A stretch of 64,000 nucleotides of DNA from an uncultured Planctomycetales bacterium (GCA_964583975.1 CAZOXU010000007.1:11051-75050); one strand, 5' to 3'; numbered from the stretch's first letter, positions 1-19,466 are shown. Made by a program: numbers and translations. The notes: generated by a model not told the origin, from the letters alone.

Positions 1-611
1 TGTGAAATTAATATCCCAAGATTTTCCTGAACATCATTCCAAAAGGAAATCCCTGATGATTGATTTGATACAAATATCTTGGTACCTAACTTTATTTGCT
101 GTCCCAAGCTTTTAGAATTGTTAGATGTATTCGAAGCGCTTGAACCATTGGCAGATTCAACGGAAGATTCGTTGCTGGTTGTATCATTAAAATCTTGAAC
201 TATTGGTGGCAAAACAATTCGAAACACTCTAGTTTCTACAGCTAAAACAATTAAGTCTCCATCCTTGATCTGAAGACCATAACCTAAAGGGTACAACAAA
301 ATATTTAAGGCCTTAGAAACAGTAACATTTAAAAGATCTACGGATACCTTACTGTCTTCAACTCCAGGTCCTAAAATTAAATGATAAGACACCTTGTCAG
401 ACAAAATTTTTAACACTTCACTTAGAGGCAATCCTTGAACCTTAATCGTAATGTTCTCAGAAAATTCCTTAGGTAAATTCAGAATTTCTTCTTTTAAATC
501 GTTACGATATGCATTGGGTGGTGTAGATCTTCTATCAGATGTAATACTTCGATTCTTCTGATTATTCCATTCCTGATCAACGATTTGAACCTTCTGGGCT
601 TCATTCATCAT
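1..611 (-). CDS. Partial CDS: N-terminal 203 aa of a protein with a secretin-N/STN-like domain; C-terminus runs off the window
   Basis: Manual minus-strand translation from ATG at 611-609 gives MMNEAQKVQIVDQEW...KVQGLPLSEVLKILSDKVSYHLILGPGVEDSKVSVDLLNVTVSKALNILLYPLGYGLQIKDGDLIVL. This is the pattern of secretin N0/STN domains. The start overlaps the stop of the upstream lipoprotein gene. No in-frame stop before position 1. Confidence 0.4.
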   Translation of the reverse strand, partial: MMNEAQKVQIVDQEWNNQKNRSITSDRRSTPPNAYRNDLKEEILNLPKEFSENITIKVQGLPLSEVLKILSDKVSYHLILGPGVEDSKVSVDLLNVTVSKALNILLYPLGYGLQIKDGDLIVLAVETRVFRIVLPPIVQDFNDTTSNESSVESANGSSASNTSNNSKSLGQQIKLGTKIFVSNQSSGISFWNDVQENLGILIS

Positions 612-1017
612 CTTTAAGGGTGCTGCTAGAACTTCTTGGCAGGGCAGTGATATTAGCAACATCCATGCCCATGTAAGAAACTTGATTTTCACCATTGCTA
701 TTCTCCTGTGTTTTTATTGGGTAAGCTGGATCCAAGCTCCATTGTCCTGGTTCAATTATCACCAGTTCGTTATGCTCTGGAATCATGACCCCATTAGTCA
801 AATGAGCTGGAACCCTAACTTCCTGCACTATAGGTGCCGTCCAATGATAGTAAGGGAAATTACCACCTTGAAATTCAGCAGCAATATCCTTAATCTGCTC
901 GCTTACTCCCTTCCTATAACCCTCCTGATAAACTTCTTTATTCTGTTGATTCGAGAAAGTTGAACAGCCTGTTAATAAAATCATCAAAATTAGCGGACAG
1001 CTTTTACTTAACTCCAT
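601..1017 (-). CDS. Lipoprotein (lipobox LLTGC), paralog of the TraV-like lipoprotein at 3498-3914
   Basis: Signal peptide plus Cys lipobox. Shares the motif P-I/V-x-x-E-x-x-V...N-x-x-V-I/L...W...IEP-x-x-W with the 138-aa lipoprotein upstream of traC. Start probably at MELSK rather than the ORF-track MLRSIH. Confidence 0.45.
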   Translation of the reverse strand: MELSKSCPLILMILLTGCSTFSNQQNKEVYQEGYRKGVSEQIKDIAAEFQGGNFPYYHWTAPIVQEVRVPAHLTNGVMIPEHNELVIIEPGQWSLDPAYPIKTQENSNGENQVSYMGMDVANITALPRSSSSTLKDDE

Positions 1018-3508
1018 ATGGATACTCCTTAGCACAGATTTTTATCGCCTCTTTAAGATCTCCATCAAAATCTTTAGCCTTATTAAAAAGATATTCATTG
1101 TTCTTTGGCTCACTGTTAGCAGCCCAATATAACCAAGGGTCAGGAATTAAACGAATAATGCCGCTGGAAGAATCTGTAATGACAAAGGCCTCGGAATATT
1201 TTCCCTTAATTGTCTCAACACTTTTAAGAGCATCAATAATTCCACTGGGTAGAGAAAGCCGGTCTTTCATCGTATCAATGAGGCTAGCTTCTTGTTTAAA
1301 GAAAATCTTGTTGGAAGAATTCGCAATAATCGCTAGTCCTGATTCATAGCGGGTCAAATCAGCCAACTCTTGGGTAATAGCTACTACGGAACAACGATAT
1401 TTTCGAAATGTTTTAAAAGCATTGGTAATAAACTCTGAGGTGTTTTTAACCTTTAATAAAGACCAAGCTTCATCAAGCATTAAATATTTTCTCTTTGGCC
1501 TCATTTGCTTATGAGAAACAAAGGTCGTTATAAAGAACATCAAATTTAGCAATACCGCCAACTGCAAATCAGGGTAGGAACTTAAATTAGCAAGTTCAAA
1601 TACAGTAAACTGTCCAGAGACCTGAAATTCATTTACACCATCAAAAAACCTCCCATAAGGCCCCTTGATAGTAAAAGGTGTCAAGCGTAACGCAAGAGTT
1701 GGCCCCATCACTGAATTAATTCCAAACGTATCATTAAATTGACTGTCATTAAGAGTACGGACAACGTCCGAAAGAAAAATCTCCGAATTTATCTTTTGTT
1801 CATAGGTTTTAATGACCGCCTTTTGTAACAATCCCTCTTCTTCTCTACTCAGACGATCACGTTCATCCCCTCCGGATGCCATTTGGGACAACAACATCAT
1901 TAAAAAAGATAAGTTCTCTGGTGTTGGCTCATTAATAAAAGGATTAATTCTTACGGGATGATTTAAATCAAAGTTAATGTATTGCCCCCTGAGAATATTG
2001 TTTAACTTTCTGTAAGATTCTCCTTTATCAAGAACAAAGAAATGAGCCCCCAAACGATCATTTTGCAAAATAAAGTCATTGATAAAAAAACTTTTTCCTG
2101 AACCTGAAGCGCCAATCACAACCCCATGCGGATTAATATTCGAATCAAAGAAATCCAAGAAAACAATCTCACCACGACGGTTTAAATATTGCTGACAAGG
2201 CGTTTTAGTTCCTTTAAATGAACCGTAAACCGGAAGCATATCTGCCGCACTTGAAGCCATAAATCTTTTAGCCCTACGAATAAATTTTTCAAAGTAATCA
2301 TCAAAATTAAGAGGCAAACAAGTCAAAAATAATGATGAACCAATTAGGTCTTCTTTAATACCCTCACAACCCAAACGATTAAGAGTATTAATGATATGGT
2401 TTGCACTTTCTTCAACACGATTTTCAGACCTGTCCGATAAAATAAAATGAAACCGAGCATGAATAATTTTCTGCCCACTTTTAAACAAATCACCCACAGT
2501 CTCGTCCATCTCTTTTTTCTGTTCCACTACCTCTACGCTTTTATCTCCTATCCAATTGTTCTGATGGATAAAAGCAAAACTCTTTTGCATATTCAAATGA
2601 TTCATGGCGTCTTGCAAAGGAGGTATTATAAAATTAACAACTATCATTAAATTAGATGGGATATCCAAAAGACAAAACCTGGTCCCCTCATAAAGTTCAC
2701 GACTAAACATTCCAACTGTTGTATTTAAAGGAAGTTCTTTGAGGCTGACAACGCGCATTAATGTATCTTCCAAATCAAACCCATTAGATGAAGCTTTAGG
2801 AATATTAAATAGAAGCTGATCACGTAAAACTGTTCTCTTACCAACCGAGGGAGCAGACAATAATTTAGAACGCTGTGGATTAAGTACTCTATAAACAAAA
2901 TTGACTAACCCTTGATCACCTAAAACGTGATACTCAATACCTGCAACCTGTAATGCACCTTGAATTAATTCACTGTATTTATCGAATACATCTCTATATT
3001 CATTAAATTCCTTTTGAATGTTCTCATTTATTTCCTTACGAGTTTGTAAAATGTTGACGGTTTTTCTCCAAAATGAAGGATAAATATAGTTAGGGAAAAA
3101 ACGAATTGTAAAATATACATCAATCTTCTTAGGAACAAAGTTATTGTCTTTTTGAATATGTTCAATCTTTCCAGAAGAAAAAACATTAATTCTTGATCCT
3201 TCTTCACAAAAACTATCGTACGTATGTAATCTTTCTTGGATATGCTGATGGCTGCATAAAATAACCTGGCAAGCTAATCTTCCTATTGGTAGACGATTAA
3301 GAACATTCTCCATGTGCAAAGATAAATTCTTTAGAAAATCATCCTCTTTCCCTTCAGTTTCATAAGAACTAATTTGCCAAACCTTCCCCATTGAACCGTC
3401 AGATAAAATAAATACATTGTTTTCATCAGATTCGATATAGGGCAAAAGGTCAGAAAAACAGTACCCTTCTTCGAAGATCTTCTCTATATGCTGTGTCTTA
3501 ATTGCCAT
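1004..3508 (-). CDS. traC: T4SS ATPase TraC/VirB4 family
   Basis: 834 aa, Walker A GASGSGKSFF, Walker B-region LMLDEAWSLL (the DEAW signature of VirB4/TraC/TrbE). Size and position after the traV-like gene as in F. Confidence 0.8.
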   Translation of the reverse strand: MAIKTQHIEKIFEEGYCFSDLLPYIESDENNVFILSDGSMGKVWQISSYETEGKEDDFLKNLSLHMENVLNRLPIGRLACQVILCSHQHIQERLHTYDSFCEEGSRINVFSSGKIEHIQKDNNFVPKKIDVYFTIRFFPNYIYPSFWRKTVNILQTRKEINENIQKEFNEYRDVFDKYSELIQGALQVAGIEYHVLGDQGLVNFVYRVLNPQRSKLLSAPSVGKRTVLRDQLLFNIPKASSNGFDLEDTLMRVVSLKELPLNTTVGMFSRELYEGTRFCLLDIPSNLMIVVNFIIPPLQDAMNHLNMQKSFAFIHQNNWIGDKSVEVVEQKKEMDETVGDLFKSGQKIIHARFHFILSDRSENRVEESANHIINTLNRLGCEGIKEDLIGSSLFLTCLPLNFDDYFEKFIRRAKRFMASSAADMLPVYGSFKGTKTPCQQYLNRRGEIVFLDFFDSNINPHGVVIGASGSGKSFFINDFILQNDRLGAHFFVLDKGESYRKLNNILRGQYINFDLNHPVRINPFINEPTPENLSFLMMLLSQMASGGDERDRLSREEEGLLQKAVIKTYEQKINSEIFLSDVVRTLNDSQFNDTFGINSVMGPTLALRLTPFTIKGPYGRFFDGVNEFQVSGQFTVFELANLSSYPDLQLAVLLNLMFFITTFVSHKQMRPKRKYLMLDEAWSLLKVKNTSEFITNAFKTFRKYRCSVVAITQELADLTRYESGLAIIANSSNKIFFKQEASLIDTMKDRLSLPSGIIDALKSVETIKGKYSEAFVITDSSSGIIRLIPDPWLYWAANSEPKNNEYLFNKAKDFDGDLKEAIKICAKEYPYGVK

Positions 3509-3914
3509 TGTCTTTGGACTCTACTTTTGATGAAACAGGTATAATTACTGGGAGCTTTGTATCCATGATCCTCCCATCCACAAACCATTTAGATGGTTCA
3601 ATCATTAAATAAATCCAATGGCCTGCCACAAGCACATCCGGATTCTCTTCAGATTTCTGATCGGGAATCCATACCTTACGTACAACAGGCTCATTAATCA
3701 CAGGTATGTAAGGCTTGACGTATCCATACGTCTTTTGTTCTTTTAGATTTCTCTCTATATATTGGGAGACATCTTTTTGGGATTGACCAACTGCAGAGGC
3801 ATAAATATCCATCATGCTCTGTTGCTGCATCTTTTCTTTCTTTATACTTTTACTCGATGCGCATCCACTGATGGAAAAGACACAAATTATAATAATTAAA
3901 ATAAACGAAAACAC
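3498..3914 (-). CDS. TraV-like outer-membrane lipoprotein
   Basis: 138 aa, signal peptide with lipobox SISGC. Immediately upstream of traC and translationally overlapping it, matching traV-traC order in F-like systems. Confidence 0.45.
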   Translation of the reverse strand: MFSFILIIIICVFSISGCASSKSIKKEKMQQQSMMDIYASAVGQSQKDVSQYIERNLKEQKTYGYVKPYIPVINEPVVRKVWIPDQKSEENPDVLVAGHWIYLMIEPSKWFVDGRIMDTKLPVIIPVSSKVESKDNGN

Positions 3915-3997
3915 ACGAATAACTCTAATGGGGGAAGTTAAATTACTGAGCGCTGCTTACAGGATTTGGGAAATCCCTTAAATACAACTAAAAATCT

Positions 3998-4387
3998 TTA
4001 ATGAATACATTCATAATTCTTATTATCTTTTAAACCTTTATCAAAAGTATAGGTCTTAAGATTTCTGGATGCGCCAATTTCTCCAATCAAAGCATCACAA
4101 AACGAAAATCCTTTAAAAGATTTTGATATGGCTAAATGTATAGACGTTTCATATTCAAAATATAGTTGGGGTATTCTTAAAAGATCATCTAACGAATTTA
4201 AAGCATATTCTTTTGATAAACCATATTTCTTAGTTAACACATAATAAACTTCCATCAAAACACCATGACAAATAAAAATCTCTTTGGCTCCATGTCCTTC
4301 AATTAAGGCCTTAGAACTTTCGACCCTTAACGGATCATCTTGCGCAATAATTCTTATTAATATATTTGAATCTAAAGCTATTTTCAT
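3998..4387 (-). CDS. vapC: PIN-domain toxin VapC
   Basis: MKIALDSNILIRI...D...FCDALIGE acidic-residue pattern of PIN nucleases. The 4-nt ATGA overlap with the upstream antitoxin gene is typical of TA pairs. Confidence 0.75.
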   Translation of the reverse strand: MKIALDSNILIRIIAQDDPLRVESSKALIEGHGAKEIFICHGVLMEVYYVLTKKYGLSKEYALNSLDDLLRIPQLYFEYETSIHLAISKSFKGFSFCDALIGEIGASRNLKTYTFDKGLKDNKNYECIH

Positions 4388-4644
4388 ATTTCTGTATGCC
4401 CCCAAGATTCTTCTCTAGCAATTCTAATTTCTTCATCGGTTAATTTCTTTTTTGTTTTACCAGCATATTTCTTAATAAAATCATCAATTGTAAAATGTTC
4501 TATCTTGGGTTTTACTTCCATATGTCCATTCTTTTCTTCAAAAACAATCTGGTCACCTGGATTTAATTTCAAACGAACCATAACTTTTAAAGGAACTGTA
4601 ATTTGTCTCTTCGATGAAATTTTGGCAGCTATTACCATAAACAC
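4384..4644 (-). CDS. vapB: AbrB/MazE/SpoVT-type antitoxin VapB
   Basis: 86 aa. RQITVPLKV...GD swapped-hairpin DNA-binding signature. Precedes vapC with an overlapping stop/start. Confidence 0.7.
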   Translation of the reverse strand: MFMVIAAKISSKRQITVPLKVMVRLKLNPGDQIVFEEKNGHMEVKPKIEHFTIDDFIKKYAGKTKKKLTDEEIRIAREESWGHTEI

Positions 4645-4651
4645 CTCTTTC

Positions 4652-4690
4652 TTTGCTATAAGAACAATTATTCTTTGTTCTTATAGCAAA
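4652..4690. promoter_or_regulatory. Perfect 16-bp inverted repeat TTTGCTATAAGAACAA-N7-TTGTTCTTATAGCAAA immediately upstream of vapB: candidate antitoxin operator
   Basis: Read directly in sequence, 8 nt upstream of the vapB start. Confidence 0.5.
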
Positions 4691-4864
4691 TATACCATAT
4701 CTTCTTCAAAGAGCAAATATTAATATAACTTTTGAGGAATTATTTTGACTTTCTAAAACTTTAAATTCTGGGGAAGAATTTATTTATTGATGAAACTACA
4801 ATTAATATACTTAAATATTTAAAAATGTCAAGCAATTAAATTGACTTAAAATCAATATTACAAA

Positions 4865-5902
4865 TCACCATTTAAATGCAACACCAGTGCGTTGGCATTG
4901 CTTGCAGATGGACATACTGGTACGGCCCTTTGTCTTCATAAGTTCACGAGTAGCTTGAGCAGCAGGACCATTCCAAATTTCCTTAACGCGAGATTGGTTG
5001 GTTGCGTAAGTTGTATATGGTTTAATATTACTCCAGATCACTCCTTCACAACACTGAAGAACATCACCATTGAAATTAACCTGCATCGCCTTCCACAACC
5101 AATCACAAGACATAGGTAACGTTGATGTAGGCAATGGGGTTTCCTTATCTTCTAACCCCCCACGGGGATTGCCCTGACGAAAACTCAGCATCAAATCATT
5201 GTCTTTGCAGAATTGGCGTATCAAAGGAATTTGATGTTCGTTATATTGATAAGTAATCCAATCAATGAGAATAACCGCATGGGATTTTAATTCTTTTTTT
5301 ATGTTAGTTACCATGCGGATATTATTTTTAAGCTTTTCTACTTCCCCATAACGAATTTGAATGCTGTAAATATCTTGAGTGAAGCCGCCTAATTGGATTT
5401 TGATAAAATCAATGCCAGAGGACAGCAAAGCCCGCGCATTTTCTGGAGTAAATAAAAGACCGTTGGTTGAAATCATGGTCATCACCTTACGCTCGGTTGA
5501 GAATTTGACCAAATCAGCTAAATCTTTATATAGGAGTGGTTCGCCATTAGTGTAGAGCACCGCAATCAGCACGTCTTCTTTGATCTGATCGATGATATCC
5601 TTAGCCATTTCAACAGGCATCTTGCCTTTAGATATGGATCCTAAAGAAGGCTGCTCTGGATTGATGTTATAGATCTTGCCCTTAGCATCACGGCAAAATA
5701 AACATCCGGCATTACATTCATTCCACAATTCTAAACTTAAAATAAAAGGTGAAGCTGCTGATATTTTTGTCTTTAAGAAGTACGAAACTGTGCATACAAC
5801 TACATTCCACATCTTACGAAAAGTAATCTTGCCTATCGAAAGTGCTGTAAAAAATAACCGGATTTTTAAAAGGAAATAGTGATTATGCTTTGGGGTTTTC
5901 AT
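4865..5902 (-). CDS. Radical SAM enzyme with C-terminal SPASM domain
   Basis: CNAGCLFC (CxxxCxxC) cluster, C-terminal Cys-rich CCEGV...CKQCQ SPASM-like region. The ORF-track start at 5983 overlaps the GT2 gene, so the true start is probably an internal Met (5902 or 5812). Confidence 0.7.
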   Translation of the reverse strand: MKTPKHNHYFLLKIRLFFTALSIGKITFRKMWNVVVCTVSYFLKTKISAASPFILSLELWNECNAGCLFCRDAKGKIYNINPEQPSLGSISKGKMPVEMAKDIIDQIKEDVLIAVLYTNGEPLLYKDLADLVKFSTERKVMTMISTNGLLFTPENARALLSSGIDFIKIQLGGFTQDIYSIQIRYGEVEKLKNNIRMVTNIKKELKSHAVILIDWITYQYNEHQIPLIRQFCKDNDLMLSFRQGNPRGGLEDKETPLPTSTLPMSCDWLWKAMQVNFNGDVLQCCEGVIWSNIKPYTTYATNQSRVKEIWNGPAAQATRELMKTKGRTSMSICKQCQRTGVAFKW

Positions 5903-6854
5903 CTTTGAATCCATAAACGGAATTGACGATATAGCGTGGCCGACCCTTGCTTTGCTCATGCACTGAATGCAGATATAAACCAATAGCTCCTAAACAAAAC
6001 AACTGTACTGCACTGACAAATAAAATAACAATCATCAAGGCTGTCCATCCAGGGACAGATTTACCTTGCAGCTTCTCTAAGAGAGCATAAACCATTAAAG
6101 CCACATCAACCAAAATGGTCGCGAAACCACAATAAGAAGCAATTTCTAAAGGTACTGAAGAAAAATTAATCAAAGCAGAATTAAGGAAATTTGAAATTGC
6201 TTTAGGGCCTAAAAAAAAGAATTTTGTTTTACCTGCAAAACGAGGTTGTCGCTCATAATAAATAAACGCTTGTTTAAACCCAATGTGAGCTATTAGCCCA
6301 CGAATCCAAGGGCGAGCCTCCTGCATCGTCAAAAGATGATCAACAACCCTCCTTGATAATAGTTTAAAATCACCCGCCTCTCGAGGTATAGTTACTGATG
6401 AATAGCGATTTAAAATAGCATAACAAATACGAGTCAAAAACATTTTAAATGCAGATTCGCCTAAACGTTTATTACGTACCGTGTGGACAACATCAATTTG
6501 ATCCCCTTCGCTCATAGCTGCCAACATCTGTGGAATCAGTTCTGGAGGGTCCTGCAAATCACAATCCATATATACAACAGCATCCCCTTTGGTACGGGCC
6601 AAACCTGCCATCACACAAACAAACACACCAAAAGTACGCGACATAGTGATAATTTTGATATCGTTATGATTTCTGTCTTGATCAATAAGGATTGCTACAG
6701 ACTGATCGGTAGAGCAGTCATCAACAAAAACAAACTCCCAACCAGAGATTTTTTGATTGTTTTTTAAATCTAAAAGCACCTTGCGGGTTCTGGAGATAAA
6801 CTCAGGCAACACATCTGCTTCATTACGGAAAGAGAATACAAAGGATAAAAACAT
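5883..6854 (-). CDS. GT2 polyprenyl-phosphate sugar transferase (GtrB/ArnC/DPM1-like) with C-terminal TM helices
   Basis: VFVDDCSTDQS and DCDLQDPPE motifs of GT-A family 2. Two C-terminal TM segments as in bactoprenol-P glycosyltransferases. Confidence 0.75.
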   Translation of the reverse strand: MFLSFVFSFRNEADVLPEFISRTRKVLLDLKNNQKISGWEFVFVDDCSTDQSVAILIDQDRNHNDIKIITMSRTFGVFVCVMAGLARTKGDAVVYMDCDLQDPPELIPQMLAAMSEGDQIDVVHTVRNKRLGESAFKMFLTRICYAILNRYSSVTIPREAGDFKLLSRRVVDHLLTMQEARPWIRGLIAHIGFKQAFIYYERQPRFAGKTKFFFLGPKAISNFLNSALINFSSVPLEIASYCGFATILVDVALMVYALLEKLQGKSVPGWTALMIVILFVSAVQLFCLGAIGLYLHSVHEQSKGRPRYIVNSVYGFKDENPKA

Positions 6855-6924
6855 GGGCCTATTGTGTCAAAAATACGCACCATTAACAATAAAAAATTCC
6901 CAATATGGATGTATTATTAAGATT

Positions 6925-8040
6925 CTACTTCCTTCTGTTTCCTCTAGCAAGACCAGTAATCGTCACACCTTTTTGAACAATAAAAAATACCGCAGCTCCA
7001 TTCTTAATATGGATAGCTGGAACCATGTCTTCGGCTTGTCTTTGATAATACTCTGAGAGCTTGCCTGCACTTTGAGCTAAGCCAGAAAATGCTGCAGCTT
7101 TACCTGGACTACCAGTCACTTCCTGCGCACTGTCACCTTGTAGACTCTTATGAGTAGTCACCTGACTGTCAGCAATAGCTTGGGCACCACCTGAAACGAA
7201 CCCGCCCATAAAAGAAAGAGCCAGCTGGCGACCTGTGCTGTAAATAATCTGTCCTTTAATACCCAATTCACCTGACTCATCAGTGACATATCCTAATTCC
7301 TGCTCATTCTCAAAGACATACCCGCTAGGCAATACACTTGAAATCGCTACAATTTGAATCAACGCGCGCTGGGAAACTAAGTCTCCGTAAGCCTTACCTA
7401 ACACAAAAGCTCCTTTTAATGGAACGCGTGATTTATTAGGCCCATAAAAAGCTTCATCTAAAGAAATTAACACTGGCAAAGGATTATTCATATCAGCAGC
7501 CGCATAAACACCAGTCAACAGTGTACCTTTACAAAAACTACCAATGGGTAGATAAACCCAGTCTTCTTGATTAGTTGGGGCAATATTAGCGACTGATAAT
7601 TCCAATGTCCTTTGAGAAGAATTCTTAGTCTGATCGTCATCTTGCTCCTCTAAATGGTTATTAAATTCATCAAATCTTTGCTGCATCCTTACTCCTAAAT
7701 CTTGATCAAGCTTAAGAACACTTTGGACAATTTCTTTTTGAGAATTACTCAGATGATCTGCTGAGGTTTGTATCTTCTTAACCTGATTTTCCATATTCTT
7801 AACCCTATCCTCGAAGTCATAATAATTCTTCTCCAAACGTTCTATATATGCCTGCTGCTCTACCCCTCCAACTGAAATACCAATATCTTTAACCACGCTA
7901 GTTTTTACCATTTCTTTATTTTGGGGCTCAACTTTCTGGCTCAGTATTAAAAATACAAAACCAATAATTAAAAAAATAACTACAATTATAATAATGATAG
8001 GTTGCTTCTTAAGGCTATTTCTAAATTCCTGGATTTTCAT
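6925..8040 (-). CDS. traB: TraB/VirB10-like T4SS inner-membrane to outer-membrane bridge protein
   Basis: N-terminal TM, coiled-coil/charged region, C-terminal beta-rich domain (LPIGSFCKGTLLTGVYAAADMNNPLPVL...). Position between traK-like and traV-like genes. Confidence 0.6.
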   Translation of the reverse strand: MKIQEFRNSLKKQPIIIIIVVIFLIIGFVFLILSQKVEPQNKEMVKTSVVKDIGISVGGVEQQAYIERLEKNYYDFEDRVKNMENQVKKIQTSADHLSNSQKEIVQSVLKLDQDLGVRMQQRFDEFNNHLEEQDDDQTKNSSQRTLELSVANIAPTNQEDWVYLPIGSFCKGTLLTGVYAAADMNNPLPVLISLDEAFYGPNKSRVPLKGAFVLGKAYGDLVSQRALIQIVAISSVLPSGYVFENEQELGYVTDESGELGIKGQIIYSTGRQLALSFMGGFVSGGAQAIADSQVTTHKSLQGDSAQEVTGSPGKAAAFSGLAQSAGKLSEYYQRQAEDMVPAIHIKNGAAVFFIVQKGVTITGLARGNRRK

Positions 8041-8728
8041 TTGTTGCCCTCATGATTACGTAAACCTTAGATGAATCGCCTTCTCGACCTTTTGGAGTAA
8101 GCATATCCCTTTGTGAACTGACTGCTAAAAGATCTGGTAGAGCTATCTGTTCAATCGGAATAATGACAGAATTCTTAGCTAAATTCCTGGCTACTAGTAT
8201 GTATGCTTTCCAATCAGACAATTCATATACCTTATCCACAGTTAACTTGATTTGATCATTGGATAGCAAAACGCTTCCTTGTGCCGGCAACAGGCTTGCT
8301 CCCGCCGGTTCCCGATTCAGCAAAAGGTCTTTCATTAAATCCATCACATCTGAATAATACCCGCCAACTGGACCAGAAGATTGGTTCTTAATGGAACCCG
8401 CCTGTATTTTAATATCATGATTCGATCCTATGCGCAGATTCAGAGGATAGCTGCTACCCGATACGGTGGTTACAAAAATGTCTGATGGAGTTTGGTTCTT
8501 GGGAAGTAAATACACAGAGTTATCCAAAACCTCTACCAAAACAGAATCTGGATCTCCGCCCTTGACGATCTTAGCAACCTTGGCTGGGAATTCCACCTGG
8601 GTAACCTTACCTTCTTCAACCTTAATATCTGTGGGACGTCCTTCATCCTTTAGCGATGCTGCATAAGAATTAAAACTAAAAAATAAGACAAGCATTACTA
8701 CACTAATAATTAATTTATTTAACATCAT
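8021..8728 (-). CDS. traK: TraK-like (VirB9 analogue) periplasmic T4SS protein
   Basis: 235 aa, signal peptide. Size and position between traE-like and traB-like genes as in F. Assignment is by synteny plus composition only. Confidence 0.45.
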   Translation of the reverse strand: MMLNKLIISVVMLVLFFSFNSYAASLKDEGRPTDIKVEEGKVTQVEFPAKVAKIVKGGDPDSVLVEVLDNSVYLLPKNQTPSDIFVTTVSGSSYPLNLRIGSNHDIKIQAGSIKNQSSGPVGGYYSDVMDLMKDLLLNREPAGASLLPAQGSVLLSNDQIKLTVDKVYELSDWKAYILVARNLAKNSVIIPIEQIALPDLLAVSSQRDMLTPKGREGDSSKVYVIMRATNENPGI

Positions 8729-9329
8729 CCATAACCTCCTGATTTACATCGTCAATAATTAAACCGTAGGGATTAAAATCCGTTGGTGGAGTCGGCTTAA
8801 GTCGTATGTGATAAATAGTCCTTTGTAATTTAATCTCTTCCTTACCCATATACACACCTTTATCTCCTTTAATCACCACATTAAAACCTTGCGAATCTTC
8901 GCGTACCTGCGGGTCTTGATTTAATGAAAACAAAGAGGCAATGTTGTTCTCTTTAACCTGCTGAATATCTTTCTTTAATCTGTTGCGTGTTTGATTTAAA
9001 AGCCTCGGCGACATAAAACGTTGAGCCCGCTTATAAACATCCTCTACTGAGGCTGGCGTAAAATTTGTCCAATTAAGTAACCATGAGGCTGAAAACATTA
9101 CCGCTGTCGTTTGAGGAGTATTCTGTGAATAAGCTATACCTGCAGATCCAACGCCTGGCACGTAATAAATTGGCCTAGGTTTTGTAATCATAAAAACTAA
9201 AGCAGCCGTTAAAACCAAAAAACAAAAGCTCATTACCATAAGCATAGCTCCTAACCTGGTATTGAGGAATTCCGATGTAGACCAGCGATCAATGAACTGT
9301 GAACTTTTTGACATAATCGGTTTTTGCAT
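8715..9329 (-). CDS. traE: TraE-like (VirB8 analogue) bitopic T4SS protein
   Basis: Single N-terminal TM then periplasmic domain. C-terminal YHIRLKP...FNPYGLIIDDV resembles the F TraE C-terminus. Synteny supports the call. Confidence 0.5.
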   Translation of the reverse strand: MQKPIMSKSSQFIDRWSTSEFLNTRLGAMLMVMSFCFLVLTAALVFMITKPRPIYYVPGVGSAGIAYSQNTPQTTAVMFSASWLLNWTNFTPASVEDVYKRAQRFMSPRLLNQTRNRLKKDIQQVKENNIASLFSLNQDPQVREDSQGFNVVIKGDKGVYMGKEEIKLQRTIYHIRLKPTPPTDFNPYGLIIDDVNQEVMDDVK

Positions 9330-9603
9330 AAATGCAGTACCTTTGAACTTTCTTAACTGGAGGTATTAGCCCAGGCAAACTAAAACCTTGGTTATATAAC
9401 CAATGCAATAAATAACCTGGTGGCTTATCCTTTTTAAACTCCATTAATGCAAACCACGCGACAATGGTTAAAATTCCAAAAATAAGTGGATTAAAAAACA
9501 AACAACCCAATCCGCCAAACATTCCCAAGAATCCTATATCTTCGATTTCAAGACCAAGAAGTAAAAGAGGTCGATCCAAAGTTCTAGGGCATTTTCGCTT
9601 CAT
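9289..9603 (-). CDS. traL: TraL-like (VirB3 analogue)
   Basis: From internal Met: MKRKCPRTLDRPLLLLGLEIEDIGFLGMFGGLGCLFFNPLIFGILTIVAWFALMEFKKDKPPGYLLHWLYNQG aligns by eye with F TraL (P-x-TL...GLPLDE...FGIKKLKKG...LIYWY). The ORF-track N-terminal extension is treated as spurious. Confidence 0.6.
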   Translation of the reverse strand: MKRKCPRTLDRPLLLLGLEIEDIGFLGMFGGLGCLFFNPLIFGILTIVAWFALMEFKKDKPPGYLLHWLYNQGFSLPGLIPPVKKVQRYCIYAKTDYVKKFTVH

Positions 9604-9613
9604 TTTATTCTCC

Positions 9614-9895
9614 TTAAACTCGTCCAAGCAAAATTGGTAAGAACAACAGAAGCAGAAAAGCCGTTCCGCAACAAAGGGCAGTTTTATGTTTACCCTGTAA
9701 TAAACTTGCAATTCCCACTAACAACACAACAGCTGCCAAAATCTTTATAACTGGCCCTTGTACAATGCTCAGAACCTTATCTGAAAAATCTTTACTAACC
9801 TCTAGTGGATCGTCCGTTGCTGCTATAGCTTTTGAAGCACAGACAAAAAACATTAAAAGTACACCTGATATAAAATTACTAACTTTTAACAACAT
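9614..9895 (-). CDS. Candidate T4SS pilin (TraA/VirB2/TrbC-like)
   Basis: 93 aa. Cleavable signal peptide ending AIAA, then about 68 aa with two hydrophobic helices. First gene of the L-E-K-B block, as traA is in F. Confidence 0.45.
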   Translation of the reverse strand: MLLKVSNFISGVLLMFFVCASKAIAATDDPLEVSKDFSDKVLSIVQGPVIKILAAVVLLVGIASLLQGKHKTALCCGTAFLLLLFLPILLGRV

Positions 9896-9910
9896 ACATT
9901 TCCCCCTTTG

Positions 9911-11089
9911 TTAACGTTTATTAATAATTTGAAAACATTGTCTAAACCCAATAAAACTAAAAATAGGCAGGACACACAATATAAATGCTGACACCGCACT
10001 AAAATATGGATACTCCCAAATACCATAAATTGCGCCAGAATTATGAATTTGAATATGAAAGACCATCATAGAAACATAATGTGCTAAAGCAGCAATTAAA
10101 CCCCAAGATTTAATCCACAAAAATATCTCAAGATAGTGCAACAAAATACTAAAACGATGAAAGATAAGTACTGCAAACATAAAAAAAGGGAAACTCACGT
10201 ATAAACAAAAGTTTACCCATCCATATATATAGAGAAAGAAGCTGTGAACGCCTGTGATCAAAAACCAATACAAATTCTCTTGGCGCGGACGCAATTGCCC
10301 CTGAAAGATACTGTCAAGAATTTGATTATCAATATTGCTAGATGAAATATTAGAATGCTGTAATAATTGCCTGATTTTCATCCATGGCCCTTGAGGATCA
10401 CTAAGTAATTGCAGTAGATTATTCTTTATTTCATCCCACTTTTGCTTCCCTTGTTGTGAATATTGATGAACAATACTCACGCTTCCTGGTGATAATGAAC
10501 GTAAATCATAGGTTGGATTACGATTAGTATAGAAAGCCAGCGCAGGTAAATAATGCGCATAAATAAAATCATTCAAATCTTTCTTTAAGCTTATATCAAT
10601 AATGGGCGTGTTAATAAATTGATTGGCCTGCAATGCGAGCCTCTGAATTCCTAGAGGTTCATCCAGAAAACGAAAATCATCAGCCAACACGTTATCTATA
10701 GCAGAAATTATCCCAATATTCATAGCATCAGCCATCTGTCCAAAATACGACAGGACTAATGGCATAACATTCATAGTAGTTTGAGAATTCTTGACATCTT
10801 GTGTTGATGTATTACTTGTGCCGTAGACTTCCATGACACTTTTAATATGAGGCTCTTGGCGAGAAGGCACTACTATCATCATCCATCCGGCAATACAAAT
10901 AAAAGCAAACACAGCAAAATGCCTGTAATTTGCCTCTCTAGCTGAACGCCAGACGCTGTAGCCAAATCCGATAGCAAAGGCTACAAATCCTAAATGTGAA
11001 GTAAAAAAGAATCTAACAAGGCTTTGCGATACATTTAACCCCCACGCAGATAGCGCAGCATCAATGGGCGTGAAACCAAAAATATCCAT
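9911..11089 (-). CDS. Polytopic membrane protein (2 N-terminal TM, about 200-aa periplasmic loop, 4-5 C-terminal TM), possibly VirB6/TraG-N-like
   Basis: Topology read from hydrophobic segments only. First gene of the tra-like array. Confidence 0.3.
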   Translation of the reverse strand: MDIFGFTPIDAALSAWGLNVSQSLVRFFFTSHLGFVAFAIGFGYSVWRSAREANYRHFAVFAFICIAGWMMIVVPSRQEPHIKSVMEVYGTSNTSTQDVKNSQTTMNVMPLVLSYFGQMADAMNIGIISAIDNVLADDFRFLDEPLGIQRLALQANQFINTPIIDISLKKDLNDFIYAHYLPALAFYTNRNPTYDLRSLSPGSVSIVHQYSQQGKQKWDEIKNNLLQLLSDPQGPWMKIRQLLQHSNISSSNIDNQILDSIFQGQLRPRQENLYWFLITGVHSFFLYIYGWVNFCLYVSFPFFMFAVLIFHRFSILLHYLEIFLWIKSWGLIAALAHYVSMMVFHIQIHNSGAIYGIWEYPYFSAVSAFILCVLPIFSFIGFRQCFQIINKR

Positions 11090-11274: not shown

Positions 11275-11676
11275 CTAACAAATACCTGCATAAGTTCCTG
11301 TTGCTGTACAAACCCAAGAACCAGCGCTACCTGATGTTCTTGATAATTGAACATAATTGGTACCAGAGGCTTGACGAGAGTTAGTTGCCACAATGAGCAC
11401 TGAACTTCCGCCAGGATTAGTAATGACATAACCCCATTTAGGACTGGAAGCAGCTCCACCCAAAAGACAATTGGTAGGAACGAAATCTTTTCCTTGAAGA
11501 CATCCTTCTACCTGTGTTTTCAAAGAAGAAGCATTTGTTAAAGCTTCAGCTGCTTGTGAACGTTCTACGTTAGCAAATAAATTTGGCAATGCAATAGCTG
11601 CCAAAATACCAAGAATAATCAAGACGACGATAATCTCAATAAGTGTAAAACCTGAATTATTACGTATTTTTCTCAT
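11275..11676 (-). CDS. Type IV prepilin / T2SS major pseudopilin (GspG/PilA-like)
   Basis: MRKIRNNSGFTLIEIIVVLIILGILAAIALP: a class III leader with G/FTLIE prepilin-peptidase site and Glu+5. 133 aa. Confidence 0.85.
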   Translation of the reverse strand: MRKIRNNSGFTLIEIIVVLIILGILAAIALPNLFANVERSQAAEALTNASSLKTQVEGCLQGKDFVPTNCLLGGAASSPKWGYVITNPGGSSVLIVATNSRQASGTNYVQLSRTSGSAGSWVCTATGTYAGIC

Positions 11677-11693
11677 TCTATTCTCCTTATTAG

Positions 11694-13817
11694 TTATTTT
11701 GATAATACCATTTTTAACTTCAACGCCCTTTTAGGATCAACTAAAAAGGCCTGCTTATAAGCATTGTCGGCTAATTCATATTGAGCACTAAAAAATAAAA
11801 TTTCTCGCAATCTGATAAGAAGTTCAAAACTTTTACTTTTACTTATCAGTTCAGTTGCAATCTGTTTTGCTTTTTCTATATTATTAGCTCTCAAATATAT
11901 TCTCACTTTATACAACTCAACTACATCATGAACAAAATAATTCTCTTTAACTTGATCTAAAACGTCTATTGCTTTTTGATACTGCTTTTGCTCTTCCAAT
12001 ATACTTATTTTGTATATCGGAATATCTATGGAAAATATATCATACTTTTGAGCTTCGTCAAGGTAAGATAAAGCTTTTTTATAGTCCCCTTGAAACCTAT
12101 GTATGACAGCATAAATGTCTTCTTTTTTGTCACTAAACTGTGGGCTTAAATTAATTTTTTCTGAACTGCTTATTTTATGAAATTTATTTAAAATGTTACC
12201 TTCATGATCTATGTATCCAAAACGTTCTAAATCCTCAAATAAAGCCTCTACATCAACCTCAATTTCATTAAAATCTGAAGCCTTAATTTTCCCTCCTTCA
12301 AGCATAGATATAGTAGCTAAACCCAAATATGCCGACAAAAATGTGGGGTCCGCATCTAACAATTTATTATAATAAAACTTAGCTTCCTTATAATCCCCCT
12401 TCTGAACATATAAAGATCCTAAATTACCGAAAACAAAAAGCTTTCTTTGGGTTTCAAGAAGAGATTTAAAACAATTAATTGAATTGTCAATATTACTAAA
12501 ATTTTGCAAGTATGAACAATAACCAATAGCAGGAAAATCAAAGCCTGGAGTTTCAGCAACCCATTGAGTATAGTAAGAAGCAGGATTATTGAATAATAAA
12601 TTTTGTTTATATGAGAATAAAAACAAAAATGTAGAAAGCAAAACTAACAAGACATAAGGAAACCAGCTTATAAGAAATTTTGTTTTATGTATAAACCATG
12701 AAATAATGGCAAAAAACCCAATATTTGTATAAAAAATCCAATGTGGTTCAAAATAAAAGAATCCCTGACCAAGTATATTATAAGAAGCAGGGGCAGATAA
12801 AACAAAACCAAATGAAAACATCAACCAAAAAAACAACATCTTCTTGTTTTCTCTATAAAACACTACAGAGAAATATAAAAAAACACATAAATAAAAAACA
12901 AACACCCATATCCATTTCCCAGCCATGTATTTATCAACCGACGTCACCCATTGAAGAAAAATATTGTCTGGATAGAATAATTTTGTAATAACCCATCTAA
13001 TTATCCTGGCGTATGCCGCGCAAGCTTCATACCAAGTGATTTTAAAACCTCCAAAAACAGCACCTAAAAGCCCCCCGGAAGTCATGGACAACTTTGAACG
13101 AAAATATAGATAGAATAAAAAGACGCTAAAGAATCCAGAACAAAGAAAAAAACGAAACCTATTAATGGTTATGGTAGCTAAAAAATAAAACAATAAAATT
13201 AGAGGAAATATAAACGCTAACTCATGAAATAAAAGTGTAAAAAGAAAAAGTACCAAATAAAGAAGATACTGGCTCCAATGAAAAAGACCTCTCTCCTTTG
13301 AAATCTTATTAATATAAATAAAGATTAAATTAAAAAATACAATTTGAAGAGACAGATGAAACGCGGTCTTATAATTAACAGCTAAACCATTAAATGGATG
13401 CAAAAGATACAGCAATGCGGATGAGCTAGATATAAAGCGGCTAGAAGTAATTGAAAAAACAAACAGAAAAATACTGTAACAAGCCAAAACGAAAGAAACC
13501 AAACTAACAAATTGATAGGCTACACTATTACTATTAAGCAAAGAAGATTCTATACTAAACAAAAAATGAGTCAGCGGACGATAATACCCCCACCGGTTCT
13601 CAAAATTCTCAAAACCAACACGATCTGTTAAATTAGGAATAAAATCATAAGAAAAGAATTGGGGATTCTGCTTTCTTACATTTAAATAATGATCTGCATC
13701 ATCTATAAAAAATGGATTCTTAAAACTATCCCAGAAATTAAAGACACCAACTAGAATAAGAAGAAAAAAGAAAAGAATCTTGAAATGTTTATTAAAGAAA
13801 TTGGGCAAGCTAAACAT
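11694..13817 (-). CDS. GT-C fold membrane glycosyltransferase (about 11 TM) with C-terminal TPR domain
   Basis: FFIDDADHY acidic motif in the first extracytoplasmic loop, many TM helices over about 430 aa, then TPR-like repeats (GDYKEAKFYYNKLLDADP...). Sits between gspF and the pilin gene. Confidence 0.5.
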   Translation of the reverse strand: MFSLPNFFNKHFKILFFFLLILVGVFNFWDSFKNPFFIDDADHYLNVRKQNPQFFSYDFIPNLTDRVGFENFENRWGYYRPLTHFLFSIESSLLNSNSVAYQFVSLVSFVLACYSIFLFVFSITSSRFISSSSALLYLLHPFNGLAVNYKTAFHLSLQIVFFNLIFIYINKISKERGLFHWSQYLLYLVLFLFTLLFHELAFIFPLILLFYFLATITINRFRFFLCSGFFSVFLFYLYFRSKLSMTSGGLLGAVFGGFKITWYEACAAYARIIRWVITKLFYPDNIFLQWVTSVDKYMAGKWIWVFVFYLCVFLYFSVVFYRENKKMLFFWLMFSFGFVLSAPASYNILGQGFFYFEPHWIFYTNIGFFAIISWFIHKTKFLISWFPYVLLVLLSTFLFLFSYKQNLLFNNPASYYTQWVAETPGFDFPAIGYCSYLQNFSNIDNSINCFKSLLETQRKLFVFGNLGSLYVQKGDYKEAKFYYNKLLDADPTFLSAYLGLATISMLEGGKIKASDFNEIEVDVEALFEDLERFGYIDHEGNILNKFHKISSSEKINLSPQFSDKKEDIYAVIHRFQGDYKKALSYLDEAQKYDIFSIDIPIYKISILEEQKQYQKAIDVLDQVKENYFVHDVVELYKVRIYLRANNIEKAKQIATELISKSKSFELLIRLREILFFSAQYELADNAYKQAFLVDPKRALKLKMVLSK

Positions 13818-15061
13818 TAATGACTAATTCCTCCCCCACCCTGTCCAAGCTTAAACAAAGGAAGGAAGATTGAAATGACAATAACCCCAATAACTCCCGC
13901 CATAAAAACTAACATGACTGGTTCAAAAATAGTACTAAACCTTTTCATCGTGGTTTCCACATGATCTTTATAATATTTAGCTACATGATCAAACATTTTA
14001 GCAAGCTCACCTGTTTCTTCTCCCACCTGAATCATTTGAACAGCCAAGACAGGAAAAAAGCTTTCCTTAACCATTGAAACAGCTAGCCCCTTACCCTCGC
14101 TGACATCTTCACGTATTTTGGCAATCAGATACCCGGCGGTTTGATTTTCAACTAATTTTTGGACAATTTCCAAGGCTAAAACAATAGGAACACCTGAACT
14201 CACTAAAATTGACATCTGAGAAGAGAATCGTTCCATAATAATCAATTTCGTCACATCACCAATAATAGGCAATTGAAATATAATTTGTTCAAACTGTAAG
14301 CTTCCCATGGGGGTCTTAAAATAGCTTCTCAAAATAAAGAATACCCCTGCTACCCCCCCTAAAATATACAAAAAATTTGTTTTAATAAATTTAAAAGTTG
14401 CCAATAGAATCTTGGTCATACCCGGAAGATCTGCATGCATGGATACAAAGATTTCTTCAAATCTGGGCGCCACAAAAAGAGCAAAAAACATAACAGCTCC
14501 AACACTAACAAAAACTAGTATAAGTGGATAGATCATAGCTGATATAACCGTACTCTTAAAAGCTGCCTGCTCTTCCACATGTAAGGCTAGTTTATTTAAA
14601 ACAAGAGGCATTGTTCCAGAAGCCTCCCCTACTTCAATAATAGAAACCCAAAACTGAGAAAAAACCTTCGGATGTTTAGCCAAACTTTCGCTTAGGGATT
14701 TACCAGCCTCAACATCCGTTCGTATCTGTTTGGTTACTTCATGAAATTTCTTACTGCTAATCTGAGAAATACATACATCCAAACTACGCAACAAAGCAAC
14801 CCCAGCTTCCAACATCGTTGCTAATTGTCTAGAAAAAATCAAAAGGTCTTCTAACTTAACGCTATCATGAGTAAACTTCATGGTTGTTGATCGAGCTGCT
14901 ACAACCTGTTCTTTAGTCTTTTCATTCATTAATCCGACTTTAATGATAAAAAGACCTTCGCTTTGCAATCTATCTACCACAGCCTGCTCATTGAAAGCCT
15001 CTATAACATCGGTTTTAACCTTACCTTGAGCATCCCTAGCTGTATAAGTGAACATCGGCAT
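13817..15061 (-). CDS. gspF: T2SS/T4P platform protein GspF/PilC
   Basis: 414 aa, duplicated GspF-type domains with three TM helices. Confidence 0.85.
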   Translation of the reverse strand: MPMFTYTARDAQGKVKTDVIEAFNEQAVVDRLQSEGLFIIKVGLMNEKTKEQVVAARSTTMKFTHDSVKLEDLLIFSRQLATMLEAGVALLRSLDVCISQISSKKFHEVTKQIRTDVEAGKSLSESLAKHPKVFSQFWVSIIEVGEASGTMPLVLNKLALHVEEQAAFKSTVISAMIYPLILVFVSVGAVMFFALFVAPRFEEIFVSMHADLPGMTKILLATFKFIKTNFLYILGGVAGVFFILRSYFKTPMGSLQFEQIIFQLPIIGDVTKLIIMERFSSQMSILVSSGVPIVLALEIVQKLVENQTAGYLIAKIREDVSEGKGLAVSMVKESFFPVLAVQMIQVGEETGELAKMFDHVAKYYKDHVETTMKRFSTIFEPVMLVFMAGVIGVIVISIFLPLFKLGQGGGGISH

Positions 15062-15085
15062 AACTAAATTATCCTTGTTATAAAA

Positions 15086-16810: not shown

Positions 16811-18337
16811 TTATTTGTTGTTTTTCTCAGTCGAATCAAGCTGCTGATTGACAGCATCCATTTTGAGGGGATCCATACCTTCACGATCGATGCGTTGGGA
16901 TGCTTCCATTGTAAATTTCTTAAGAAGATTATCATTAGCAATCTTAGGAGTAATAAAAATAATTAATTCTCTTTCGGTCTCTATTACACTCTTGTGACGG
17001 AAAGGTCCTCCTATCACTGGCAGGTCGCCCAAAAAGGGTAATTTAGAAATATCGACAATTCTTTGTTTACGCAACAGCCCCCCGATAATCACTGTTTCTC
17101 CATTCTTGACCTTTAATATGGAATCTGTTTTACGTGATTCCACATCAATAACATTAGTTCCATTAACTCTTATTCCAGAATCGCTGGTGTCATCAATCTG
17201 AGGTGAAACTTTTAAGACAATCTCTCCTGTAGTTAAATTAGCTTGCGGAGTGACATCTAACATAACCTTAACAGGCTTAGTTATAGCTGTTTCTGTTTTA
17301 GTGGTCCCTGTGGTACTTGTACTTTCTGTAGCAGAAACACCCACCGTTCGATCTCCACCAACTTCAATATGACCAGTCTGATTATTTAATGTCAAAATCT
17401 TTGGACTAGCTAAACTATGCGTGTCAGCCTGAGATTTTAAAAAATCTAGAGCTGCCGTCATGCCAGAAAAATCAAGAATACCAGGAGTAAATTGTAACGA
17501 ATTAGCAGGTCCCGAATCGCTACCCGAGCTAGATGATCCTGAACCCCCTGATGAACTATCCGATGAATCAGAACCTGATGCTAATTTATAAGGGGCTCCC
17601 CCATTATTCATTTTATTTAAAATAAAATTTTGATTAAAAGGAACCAGGGTCTCTCTAGAACCACCCCTAAACGTAAGAGGCGTTTGCCCATAAAGCACAC
17701 CTATTTTCTCTGAATTCCCCTTAGAAACGTCTAATATTTCCACTTCAATTAAAATTTGCACTACAGGCACATCAAGCTTGGCAATAGTTTCTTCAATTAA
17801 AGGAAATTGTTCAGGAACATCCGAAATGATAAAACTATTTGTCCTAGGATCTTCTTGTAATTTTCCATCTTTGGATTTAATAGCATCTAACGCAGCCTTA
17901 ATGCCTCCTGTTGCATCCTTGCCGTTCATTTTAGAAGTCGACACCGAAGCAAACTTTAGAGGAAAAACCTTTGTAACTGTTTTGTCTTTTTCCTTGGGCT
18001 TAACAATAAAAACGTTGCTATTTGCAGTCATTTCATAAGTTAAATCATTAGCATCTAAGATTTTCTCTAACGCTTCTTCCGTAGGAACTTTTTCTAAAAA
18101 AATTGTTACTTTCTTGTTAGACACTTCTGCCGCTGATATAAAATTTAATCCTGCTTGCTGGGAGAATATTTTTAACACATCAGTTAATGAAGTATCTCTA
18201 GAATTGATTGAAATTTTCTTGGAATAATCAGAATAGATAAAACGATTTTCAATATCTTCCACAGCTGCTACCGATAAAGTAGTAGAAAACATGATCAGGT
18301 ATAACGACATTGCTAGGTAACGAAAATTCATGAACAC
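16811..18337 (-). CDS. gspD: Secretin (GspD/PilQ family), short form
   Basis: 508 aa. Signal peptide, N0-like domain, Ser/Gly/Asp low-complexity linker, C-terminal secretin domain (VIIGGLLRKQ...LPFLGDLPVIGGPF). Confidence 0.85.
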   Translation of the reverse strand: MFMNFRYLAMSLYLIMFSTTLSVAAVEDIENRFIYSDYSKKISINSRDTSLTDVLKIFSQQAGLNFISAAEVSNKKVTIFLEKVPTEEALEKILDANDLTYEMTANSNVFIVKPKEKDKTVTKVFPLKFASVSTSKMNGKDATGGIKAALDAIKSKDGKLQEDPRTNSFIISDVPEQFPLIEETIAKLDVPVVQILIEVEILDVSKGNSEKIGVLYGQTPLTFRGGSRETLVPFNQNFILNKMNNGGAPYKLASGSDSSDSSSGGSGSSSSGSDSGPANSLQFTPGILDFSGMTAALDFLKSQADTHSLASPKILTLNNQTGHIEVGGDRTVGVSATESTSTTGTTKTETAITKPVKVMLDVTPQANLTTGEIVLKVSPQIDDTSDSGIRVNGTNVIDVESRKTDSILKVKNGETVIIGGLLRKQRIVDISKLPFLGDLPVIGGPFRHKSVIETERELIIFITPKIANDNLLKKFTMEASQRIDREGMDPLKMDAVNQQLDSTEKNNK

Positions 18338-18369
18338 TCCACGATCTTGTTAAGAAGTATTATTAAAAA

Positions 18370-19460: not shown

Positions 19461-19466
19461 AGAATC

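Follow-up and report, generated by a model that had tools for sequence, protein, structure and literature searches.

Type IV secretion systems (T4SSs) that are fixed in the chromosome, lack a type IV coupling protein (T4CP) and are used outside conjugation are known from Bordetella (Ptl), Brucella (VirB) and Helicobacter (ComB). Other conjugation-type T4SSs are paired with a type IVb pilus, as in the IncI1 plasmid R64 with its thin pilus (PilL-V) and in elements with PAPI-1/ICEclc-type pil clusters. A chromosomal F-like tra unit (traA, traL, traK, traB, traV, traC and others) has been described in the island Pam100G of Protochlamydia amoebophila UWE25, where export of protein or of DNA is debated (PMC548262). 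Here we analyse an F-like T4SS at positions 1-11,089 of a 64,000-nucleotide stretch, the window, which is labelled as coming from an uncultured Planctomycetales bacterium (GCA_964583975.1, CAZOXU010000007.1:11051-75050). The first two-thirds of an operon-like cluster of roughly 15-20 kb, conserved across the phylum Omnitrophota, lie in this region. In that cluster a type IVb/MSH-like pilus module is nested in an F-like tra operon, at about the place that trbI and traW take in F. We consider it probable that the window's copy is a chromosomally fixed, T4CP-less relative of the transfer apparatus of Omnitrophota integrative and conjugative elements (ICEs).

Gene identities were taken from profile searches of the open reading frames (ORFs) of the window against Pfam and NCBIfam/TIGR, with the gathering score or the equivalog cut-off as threshold. 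The minus strand carries every large ORF from position 1 to about 49 kb, and all genes below lie on it. Eight T4SS genes, all intact and full length, follow the F order: TraG_N/VirB6-like, VirB2-like pilin, TraL, TraE, TraK, TraB, TraV and TraC. The initial annotation had proposed a ten-gene tra block, with the pilin, TraL, TraE, TraK, TraB, TraV and TraC co-directional in this order. Those genes were found where it placed them, and its reading of TraC, TraB and TraL was borne out by the profile searches; four genes of the block, however, are unrelated inserts and the two leftmost encode a lipoprotein and a secretin.

TraC, the VirB4-type ATPase (1004-3508), matches Pfam P-loop_TraG (1.7e-36) and TraC_F_IV (1e-19), both above the gathering score. 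Its best VirB4 family is the F-type TraC of TIGR02746 (9e-107, positions 2-799 of 800), with 357.9 bits against an equivalog cut-off of 567, and it has a Walker A motif (GASGSGKS) at residue 466 and a DEAW box at residue 679. TraV, TraB, TraK, TraE and TraL likewise exceed their Pfam gathering scores, in the order L-E-K-B-(insert)-V-C. TraV (3498-3914), a VirB7-like lipoprotein with the lipobox SISGC, scores 23.2 bits where 21 is required, and has orthologues of 44-63% identity in all loci compared. TraB/VirB10 (6925-8040) matches Pfam TrbI (6e-22), the F-type TraB of NCBIfam (4e-23) and the pED208/F TraB chains 7SPB and 7OKN in the PDB (5e-15). TraK (8021-8728), a VirB9-like outer-membrane core subunit, reaches 25.7 bits with TraK_N (gathering score 24.8), has a signal peptide and keeps its position in relatives. 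TraE (8715-9329) is VirB8-like (Pfam TraE 8e-10, TIGR02761 4e-12), and TraL (9289-9711) is VirB3-like (Pfam TraL 7.6e-10, TIGR02762 1.8e-6); the true TraL start is probably the ATG at about 9606, orthologues having 96-113 amino acids (aa).

The two remaining T4SS genes were harder to place. The 93-aa pilin (9614-9895) has a signal peptide and two hydrophobic segments and scores 25.1 bits (2e-5) with Pfam TrbC/VIRB2 (PF04956), under the gathering score of 27.9. It had no TraA match in the Pfam search, and its orthologues are 35-63% identical. The first gene of the conserved cluster (9911-11,089) encodes a 392-aa polytopic membrane protein that we call TraG_N/VirB6-like by homology, since it matches the TraG_N-bearing protein of Ca. 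Velamenicoccus archaeovorus (BLASTP, 5.5e-31). TraG_N is matched by 7 of 11 members of its family (best 2.8e-14), the window's member only weakly and below the Pfam threshold (E=0.035), and a profile of the family gave chance-level matches only in the PDB.

The likeness to the F-type T4SS of F and pED208 thus covers gene order, the best family of TraC, the structures matched by TraB, and the presence of a TraG_N-like protein and, in related clusters, of TraU. There are differences as well. The pilin is nearer to VirB2/TrbC than to TraA, and the TraG_N-like protein is short and stands first in the operon. Pfam found no TraF, TraH, TraN, TraU, TraW or TrbC among the window proteins; TraH, TraN and TraW are also absent from all locus tables of relatives, and neither TraD nor a relaxase is seen in the window's clade. 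A full type IV pilus module lies between TraC and TraU, where the F-like plasmid of Desulfosarcina BuS5 has none.

This module begins directly to the left of TraC. A 144-aa lipoprotein gene (601-1035, lipobox LLTGC) overlaps the reading frames of both TraC and the secretin. The lipoprotein has no family match in Pfam or NCBIfam, and its position suggests a pilotin-like partner of the secretin; a single-sequence AlphaFold2 model was unusable (predicted local distance difference test score 33). The secretin gene (3-695) runs off the left end after its N-terminal 231 codons. Related loci and contigs are cited here by their L numbers, and one of them, L001, shares 5,069 nucleotides (nt) with the window at 100% identity and adds 384 nt of secretin. 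The product so extended matches the PilN-family type IVB secretins of TIGR02520 (1e-24), MshL (6e-21) and Pfam Secretin_N_2. The full-length orthologue in L003 matches Pfam Secretin (2e-33) and TIGR02520 (1e-42); both TIGR02520 matches are under the cut-off of 288, and the secretin is closer to MshL (213 bits, cut-off 250) than to PilN.

Leftward extension used L001 and a second Logan contig, L099, both from run SRR12487046, the window's sample; the stretch of about 260 nt between them, inside the secretin, is not bridged. L099 carries, in order, the secretin C-terminus, a PilO-like protein, proteins of 165 aa and 194 aa, and a T2SSE ATPase. Its PilO-like protein is identical at 400 of 400 residues to P0175, which is recorded on a 91,786-bp NCBI contig, equal in length to the one that carries the window's TraC. 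The approximately 4.5 kb beyond the window's left end therefore belongs to the pilus module, consisting of the rest of the secretin, PilO/PilP-like proteins and the T2SSE ATPase, which is as far as the module was read in the window's own genome.

Longer loci show what follows the secretin: proteins of about 400 aa and about 165 aa, both without a family, a 150-240-aa protein, the T2SSE ATPase and a T2SSF platform protein, then a type IVb pilin, PilS-type or bundlin-like, and a minor pilin. The pilins match Pfam PilS and N_methyl in L003 and L011, with a weak bundlin-like match in L012 and L097, and all four loci have T2SSE and T2SSF. The N-terminus of the L003 ATPase passes the model of the MshE-type domain that binds cyclic di-GMP (c-di-GMP). 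A PilV-like protein of 277-303 aa and TraU follow in L011, L012 and L100. No shufflon recombinase appears in the locus tables with PilV-like proteins, where repeats were not searched for; the cluster holds no PilT-like gene and no prepilin peptidase, although one lies upstream of it in L101.

The order lipoprotein, PilN-type secretin, about 400 aa, about 165 aa, ATPase, platform, PilS-type pilin and PilV-like protein, with its TIGR02520 and Pfam PilS matches, mirrors pilM-N-O-P-Q-R-S-V of R64. In R64-type and PAPI-1-type systems, however, the pilus genes form a separate operon beside an I- or G-type T4SS, while those of Omnitrophota are nested in an F-like tra operon. The Omnitrophota secretin also scores higher against MshL, the ATPase has the MshE-type c-di-GMP-binding N-terminus, and the shufflon, prepilin peptidase and PilT-like gene were not seen in the cluster. 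The apparatus resembles an F-type T4SS combined with a thin pilus of the R64 kind, but departs from these systems in several defining features. A further contig of run SRR12487046, L015, encodes the C-terminus of a PilV-like protein, a 301-aa TraU, a thioredoxin-fold protein, a protein of 109 aa and a lipoprotein, and its NCBI counterpart is a contig of 222,597 bp. L015 could represent the distal part of the window's system in the same metagenome-assembled genome (MAG), or come from another Omnitrophota genome present in the sample.

All TraC relatives in a collection of species-representative genomes, at 53-70% identity, come from Candidatus Omnitrophota MAGs, two of them labelled 'Planctomycetales'. 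A large protein search gave 170 TraC-related clusters; the 120 listed are at least 44% identical, and every named one is from Omnitrophota. The complete genome of Ca. Velamenicoccus archaeovorus LiM (CP019384.1) is among the relatives at 50% identity. The nearest plasmid TraC proteins in PLSDB are just 23-31% identical. The Omnitrophota proteins already bear the NCBI name 'TraC family protein'. Judged by these matches, the host is an ultra-small Candidatus Omnitrophota bacterium of the Planctomycetes-Verrucomicrobia-Chlamydiae (PVC) superphylum. That is an unusual lineage for an F-like system, a kind that the initial annotation had called uncommon outside Proteobacteria, though Protochlamydia UWE25 provides a PVC precedent (PMC548262). 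Going by its description, Pam100G is likewise an F-like tra unit in the chromosome of a host-dependent PVC member; it differs in being a 100-kb island flanked by direct repeats, with no reported nested pilus module (PMC548262).

Average-linkage clustering of 117 full-length TraC sequences gave three main clades, about 47-50% identical to one another: A, which holds the window (33 clusters), B, with Velamenicoccus (61), and C (18). All three keep the order TraG_N-like, pilin, L, E, K, B, V, C, lipoprotein, secretin, and among the distinct loci of the three clades that extend far enough the lipoprotein and then the secretin directly follow TraC in 24 of 26. Exceptions to the wider layout are L096, without the pilus module, L009, without the part after the secretin, and L097, with an insertion after the secretin. 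These gaps, the loss of the T4CP and the insertions between TraB and TraV in the window, between TraC and the lipoprotein in L002 and in L097 are what a decaying, non-functional remnant of a former ICE might show. The eight T4SS genes are, however, full length in the window and in relatives with the above 53-70% identity, and their order is collinear over the greater distance between the clades. Conservation over that distance implies purifying selection, and we regard decay as a very improbable account.

The sister clade shows the same apparatus with genes for mobility. In clade B the order is TraG_N, a 254-aa MobC-like protein, a T4CP (SXT_TraD-like, 9e-27), pilin, TraL, a 63-aa protein, a cargo slot, and then TraE onwards; V. 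archaeovorus and dozens of metagenome contigs carry this layout. In L043 a tyrosine integrase lies directly upstream of TraG_N, and in L062 and L076 tRNA-His / tRNA-Asn genes lie 0.2-0.6 kb upstream of it. The sampling of clade B is partly biased, the scan having been seeded with the T4CP, but four long contigs found independently through TraC proved to be the same contigs. The clade B version, that of V. archaeovorus, looks like an ICE, and because in this sister clade the apparatus occurs with a T4CP, with an integrase and beside tRNA genes, an ICE origin or connection of the apparatus is real.

Two observations on clade B-like contigs may be added. The cargo slot, between TraL with the 63-aa Imm_superinfect-like gene and TraE, is a hot spot of 0-8.6 kb (L046, L050, L051, L054, L055, L058, L062, L075), and in V. 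archaeovorus it holds an NYN-domain gene. Eight contigs carry the 254-aa MobC-like gene and the T4CP without adjacent T4SS genes (L023, L032, L059, L060, L063, L077, L084, L090); the 63-aa protein accompanies them in six of the eight, and a tyrosine integrase is near in L032, L059 and L063. From their gene content, these contigs are candidate mobilisable elements of Velamenicoccus-like Omnitrophota that would bring their own coupling protein.

Pfam scans and a tRNA search of the 64-kb window found no relaxase, T4CP or integrase, as the initial annotation had stated, and no tRNA gene either. Nor is there a T4CP in the Pfam tables of the fetched loci of the window's clade. Relaxase families had no match in any protein scanned; the only candidate is the 254-aa protein of clade B, with a weak MobC/replication-relaxation match (3e-6), and it was not found in the window's clade. 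Searches by tblastn of 334 kb, made up of the window and 20 clade A and C loci, gave no match to the V. archaeovorus T4CP, the 254-aa MobC-like protein, the L043 integrase or two neighbouring proteins. Because clade A, in the sequence sampled, lacks a T4CP, a relaxase-like gene and an integrase while its sister clade has the same apparatus with them, we favour the fixed, T4CP-less state as the probable one for the window's copy.

An ordinary, still mobile ICE would have its relaxase, T4CP and integrase further left, past the pilus genes, and its pilus would stabilise mating pairs as in R64 and PAPI-1. The clade B layout, with MobC-like gene and T4CP next to TraG_N, integrase, tRNA flanks and cargo hot spot, speaks for such an element, as do the passenger genes and toxin-antitoxin module inside the operon, a slightly atypical composition, and the TraU and thioredoxin-fold genes on another contig of the sample. 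The clade B T4CP, however, sits between TraG_N and the pilin, and nothing interrupts this junction in the window or in ten other clade A/C loci (L003, L004, L006, L010, L012, L095, L096, L097, L100, L101). The T4CP, MobC-like gene and integrase are missing from the 334 kb as well, and both cluster ends meet housekeeping genes within 10 kb in L003, L095, L100 and L101. Flanking genes of this kind are KdtA-LpxK (L003, L009), ferrochelatase (L095), TamB (L100), and aroE, a prepilin peptidase and fructose-bisphosphate aldolase (L101). The first approximately 4.5 kb left of the window holds pilus genes only. A mobile ICE is for these reasons unlikely here. The initial annotation had considered both a domesticated T4SS in the chromosome and the distal part of an ICE with its other end to the left. 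The first idea holds up, though the nested pilus, the type IVa pilus neighbour and the ICE-bearing sister clade had been missed; of the second, the connection to ICEs stands through clade B, but the sequence next to the left, as far as read, has no relaxase, T4CP or integrase.

Composition was compared between the left part of the window (1-21472) and the biosynthetic core (25602-49404), with codon-usage distance defined as the mean absolute difference in synonymous codon fractions. The G+C content is 0.37 in the T4SS genes, 0.36 in the neighbouring type IVa pilus genes and 0.41 in the core; at third codon positions (GC3) it is 0.32, 0.29 and 0.355. The codon-usage distance to the core is 0.059 for the T4SS genes and 0.050 for the type IVa pilus genes, about 5 and 3 standard deviations above a core-versus-core null of 0.035 +/- 0.005, and only the T4SS value exceeds the maximum of that null, 0.055. 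The T4SS genes are slightly atypical, but because the difference is modest and is common to the neighbouring type IVa pilus genes, it is not decisive for a foreign origin; it may reflect gene class, expression level or an old horizontal origin.

Several points weigh against a fixed, T4CP-less apparatus. Beyond the sequence read, the genome may still hold a T4CP, relaxase or integrase, further to the left or at another place, and the sample does contain the TraU-thioredoxin contig L015. The tblastn probe for the T4CP was of the Velamenicoccus type only, so that a very different T4CP could escape it, though the Pfam tables show none. Mobile regions typically carry passengers such as the toxin-antitoxin module and the other insertions, and G+C content (0.37 against 0.41) and codon usage (0.059 against a null maximum of 0.055) are modestly off the core. 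Flanks differ in the more distant clade A loci (L012, L095, L097), which fits rearrangement or mobility.

In the working that established T4SS biology suggests, TraK, TraB and TraV would form the outer-membrane core, while TraC, TraL, TraE and the TraG_N-like protein would make up the platform in the inner membrane where the VirB2-like pilin is extracted and polymerised. Secretin, ATPase and platform would build a type IVb pilus for attachment. Co-expressed with the T4SS, and probably gated by c-di-GMP through its MshE-type ATPase, this pilus could bring the tiny cell to a partner or host cell. The T4CPs of F and pKM101 are needed only for substrate transfer, and their deletion is reported to lead to hyperpiliation (PMC13463995); a T4CP-less copy would therefore be expected to stay in its default state, making pili and contacts. 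For any transfer, a T4CP and a relaxase would have to be supplied in trans, unless periplasmic substrates were used. Conjugative T4SSs are also reported to harm neighbouring cells independently of cargo (PMC11045733). The role we prefer is contact or attachment, perhaps together with macromolecule exchange. The apparatus may also serve elements that come with a T4CP of their own, because modules of the 254-aa protein, T4CP and 63-aa protein without a T4SS exist in clade B-like contigs.

Ptl, VirB and ComB are complete envelope-spanning T4SSs without coupling protein or relaxase, like the Omnitrophota system, but they are VirB/P-type, whereas the latter is F-type, is coupled to a type IV pilus and has no identified effector or toxin substrate. 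Another reading is import, in which T4SS and pilus would be repurposed for a ComB-like uptake of DNA, nutrients or macromolecules from host or prey. T4CP and relaxase are missing as they are in T4CP-less systems such as Helicobacter ComB, DNA uptake usually proceeds through a secretin-based type IV pilus, and the apparatus is kept across the phylum. Import would also suit a phylum whose members have been proposed to be ultra-small predators or parasites (PMC10066038). Yet none of the locus tables shows a ComEA, ComEC or DprA gene within or next to the cluster, the genes are those of an F-type and not of a ComB/VirB-type system, and the idea is drawn solely from which genes are missing; we hold import to be improbable.

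A wider proposal, which we put forward tentatively, is that T4SS and nested pilus together are one phylum-wide, vertically inherited contact apparatus that would latch on to host or prey and exchange macromolecules, by export or uptake, without a T4CP. If this were true, a conjugation machine would have been exapted for an epibiotic, predatory or parasitic life, and the ICE-like version of Velamenicoccus would be its mobile relative. For Omnitrophota, which are uncultured, very small and thought to be predators or parasites, the tra-pil operon provides a concrete candidate for the contact machinery. Contact between cells, more than plasmid transfer of the ordinary kind, may be what the combined T4SS-pilus layout serves. 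Its two forms, ICE-like with a coupling protein and chromosomally fixed without, offer a natural experiment on the repurposing of conjugation systems.

F-like tra units in the PVC superphylum were already known (PMC548262). No description of the nested tra-pil layout or of its two states was found in the Omnitrophota literature searched, which did not take in the Velamenicoccus genome paper. The published genome surveys of the phylum that were searched treat type IVa pili, Tad pili, giant proteins and type II-like loci without mention of this cluster, and the word stem 'conjug' has 0 occurrences in PMC10066038. West-Roberts et al. describe a 'type II/IV-like secretion locus upstream of giant genes', which was considered as a possible equivalent and rejected, its description naming gspD/E/F, rcpC and a rotamase, not tra genes.

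The insert between TraB and TraV comprises, from left to right, a PIN toxin gene (3998-4405; Pfam PIN 4.5e-10), a MazE/AbrB antitoxin gene (4384-4644; MazE_antitoxin 4.9e-5), a radical-SAM/SPASM protein gene (4865-5983; Radical_SAM, SPASM) and a gene for a family 2 glycosyltransferase (GT2) of the polyprenyl-phosphate, PgfS/ArnC-like type (5883-6854; Glycos_transf_2, and PgfS-like of NCBIfam 2e-58). These approximately 3 kb split TraB from TraV in the window genome only, the two genes abutting in nine relatives (L004, L006, L009, L010, L095, L096, L097, L100, L101). GC3 is 0.20 in the toxin-antitoxin pair and 0.32 in the T4SS genes. The antitoxin start is closely preceded by a perfect 16-nt inverted repeat (4652-4667 / 4675-4690), and the module as a whole by a promoter-like site close to consensus (TTGACA-16-TATATT, 4831-4804), so that MazE-PIN looks like a recently inserted, self-regulated unit. 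The repeat search gave no convincing direct repeats flanking the 3-kb insert, and no precursor peptide or partner gene was identified for the radical-SAM/SPASM and GT2 proteins. A role of these two enzymes in pilin modification was rejected, since no related locus has either at that position. All four genes are recent passengers outside the machine, with no ground to tie them to T4SS function. Other genomes have other genes at other junctions, with RND efflux genes in L002, ORF6N in L012 and L097, and DUF6036 in L097. The L002 insertion (6.5 kb; 2982-9177), which carries TauE/DUF1634 and an RND efflux pair (OEP, AcrB), shows that the TraC-lipoprotein junction can be split without losing the downstream genes. 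A promoter and terminator scan of 1-12 kb found fewer promoter-like sites (30) than in shuffled sequence (43), and we therefore claim no operon boundaries.

The window is chromosomal and, apart from the T4SS, housekeeping. The initial annotation had placed the T4SS block directly beside biosynthesis genes, but other genes intervene. Immediately upstream of the T4SS, and co-directional with it, is a complete type IVa pilus cluster (11275-21472, from Pfam) with a pilin, a 707-aa TPR protein, PilC, PilB with an MshEN domain, a secretin, PilO, a 520-aa PilM-PilN fusion and a PilX-like protein. ExbD, ExbB and an 819-aa TPR protein (to 25598) follow, then UvrA, and only after it panC, folK, dap, lysA, arg and rpsI-rplM genes; an ABC transporter, gshAB, glutaredoxin and metH lie at the far right. 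The type IVa pilin and TPR neighbours upstream of the T4SS are common to the window, L003 and L096. Three envelope machines, the T4SS, the nested pilus and the type IVa pilus cluster, thus lie in one block.

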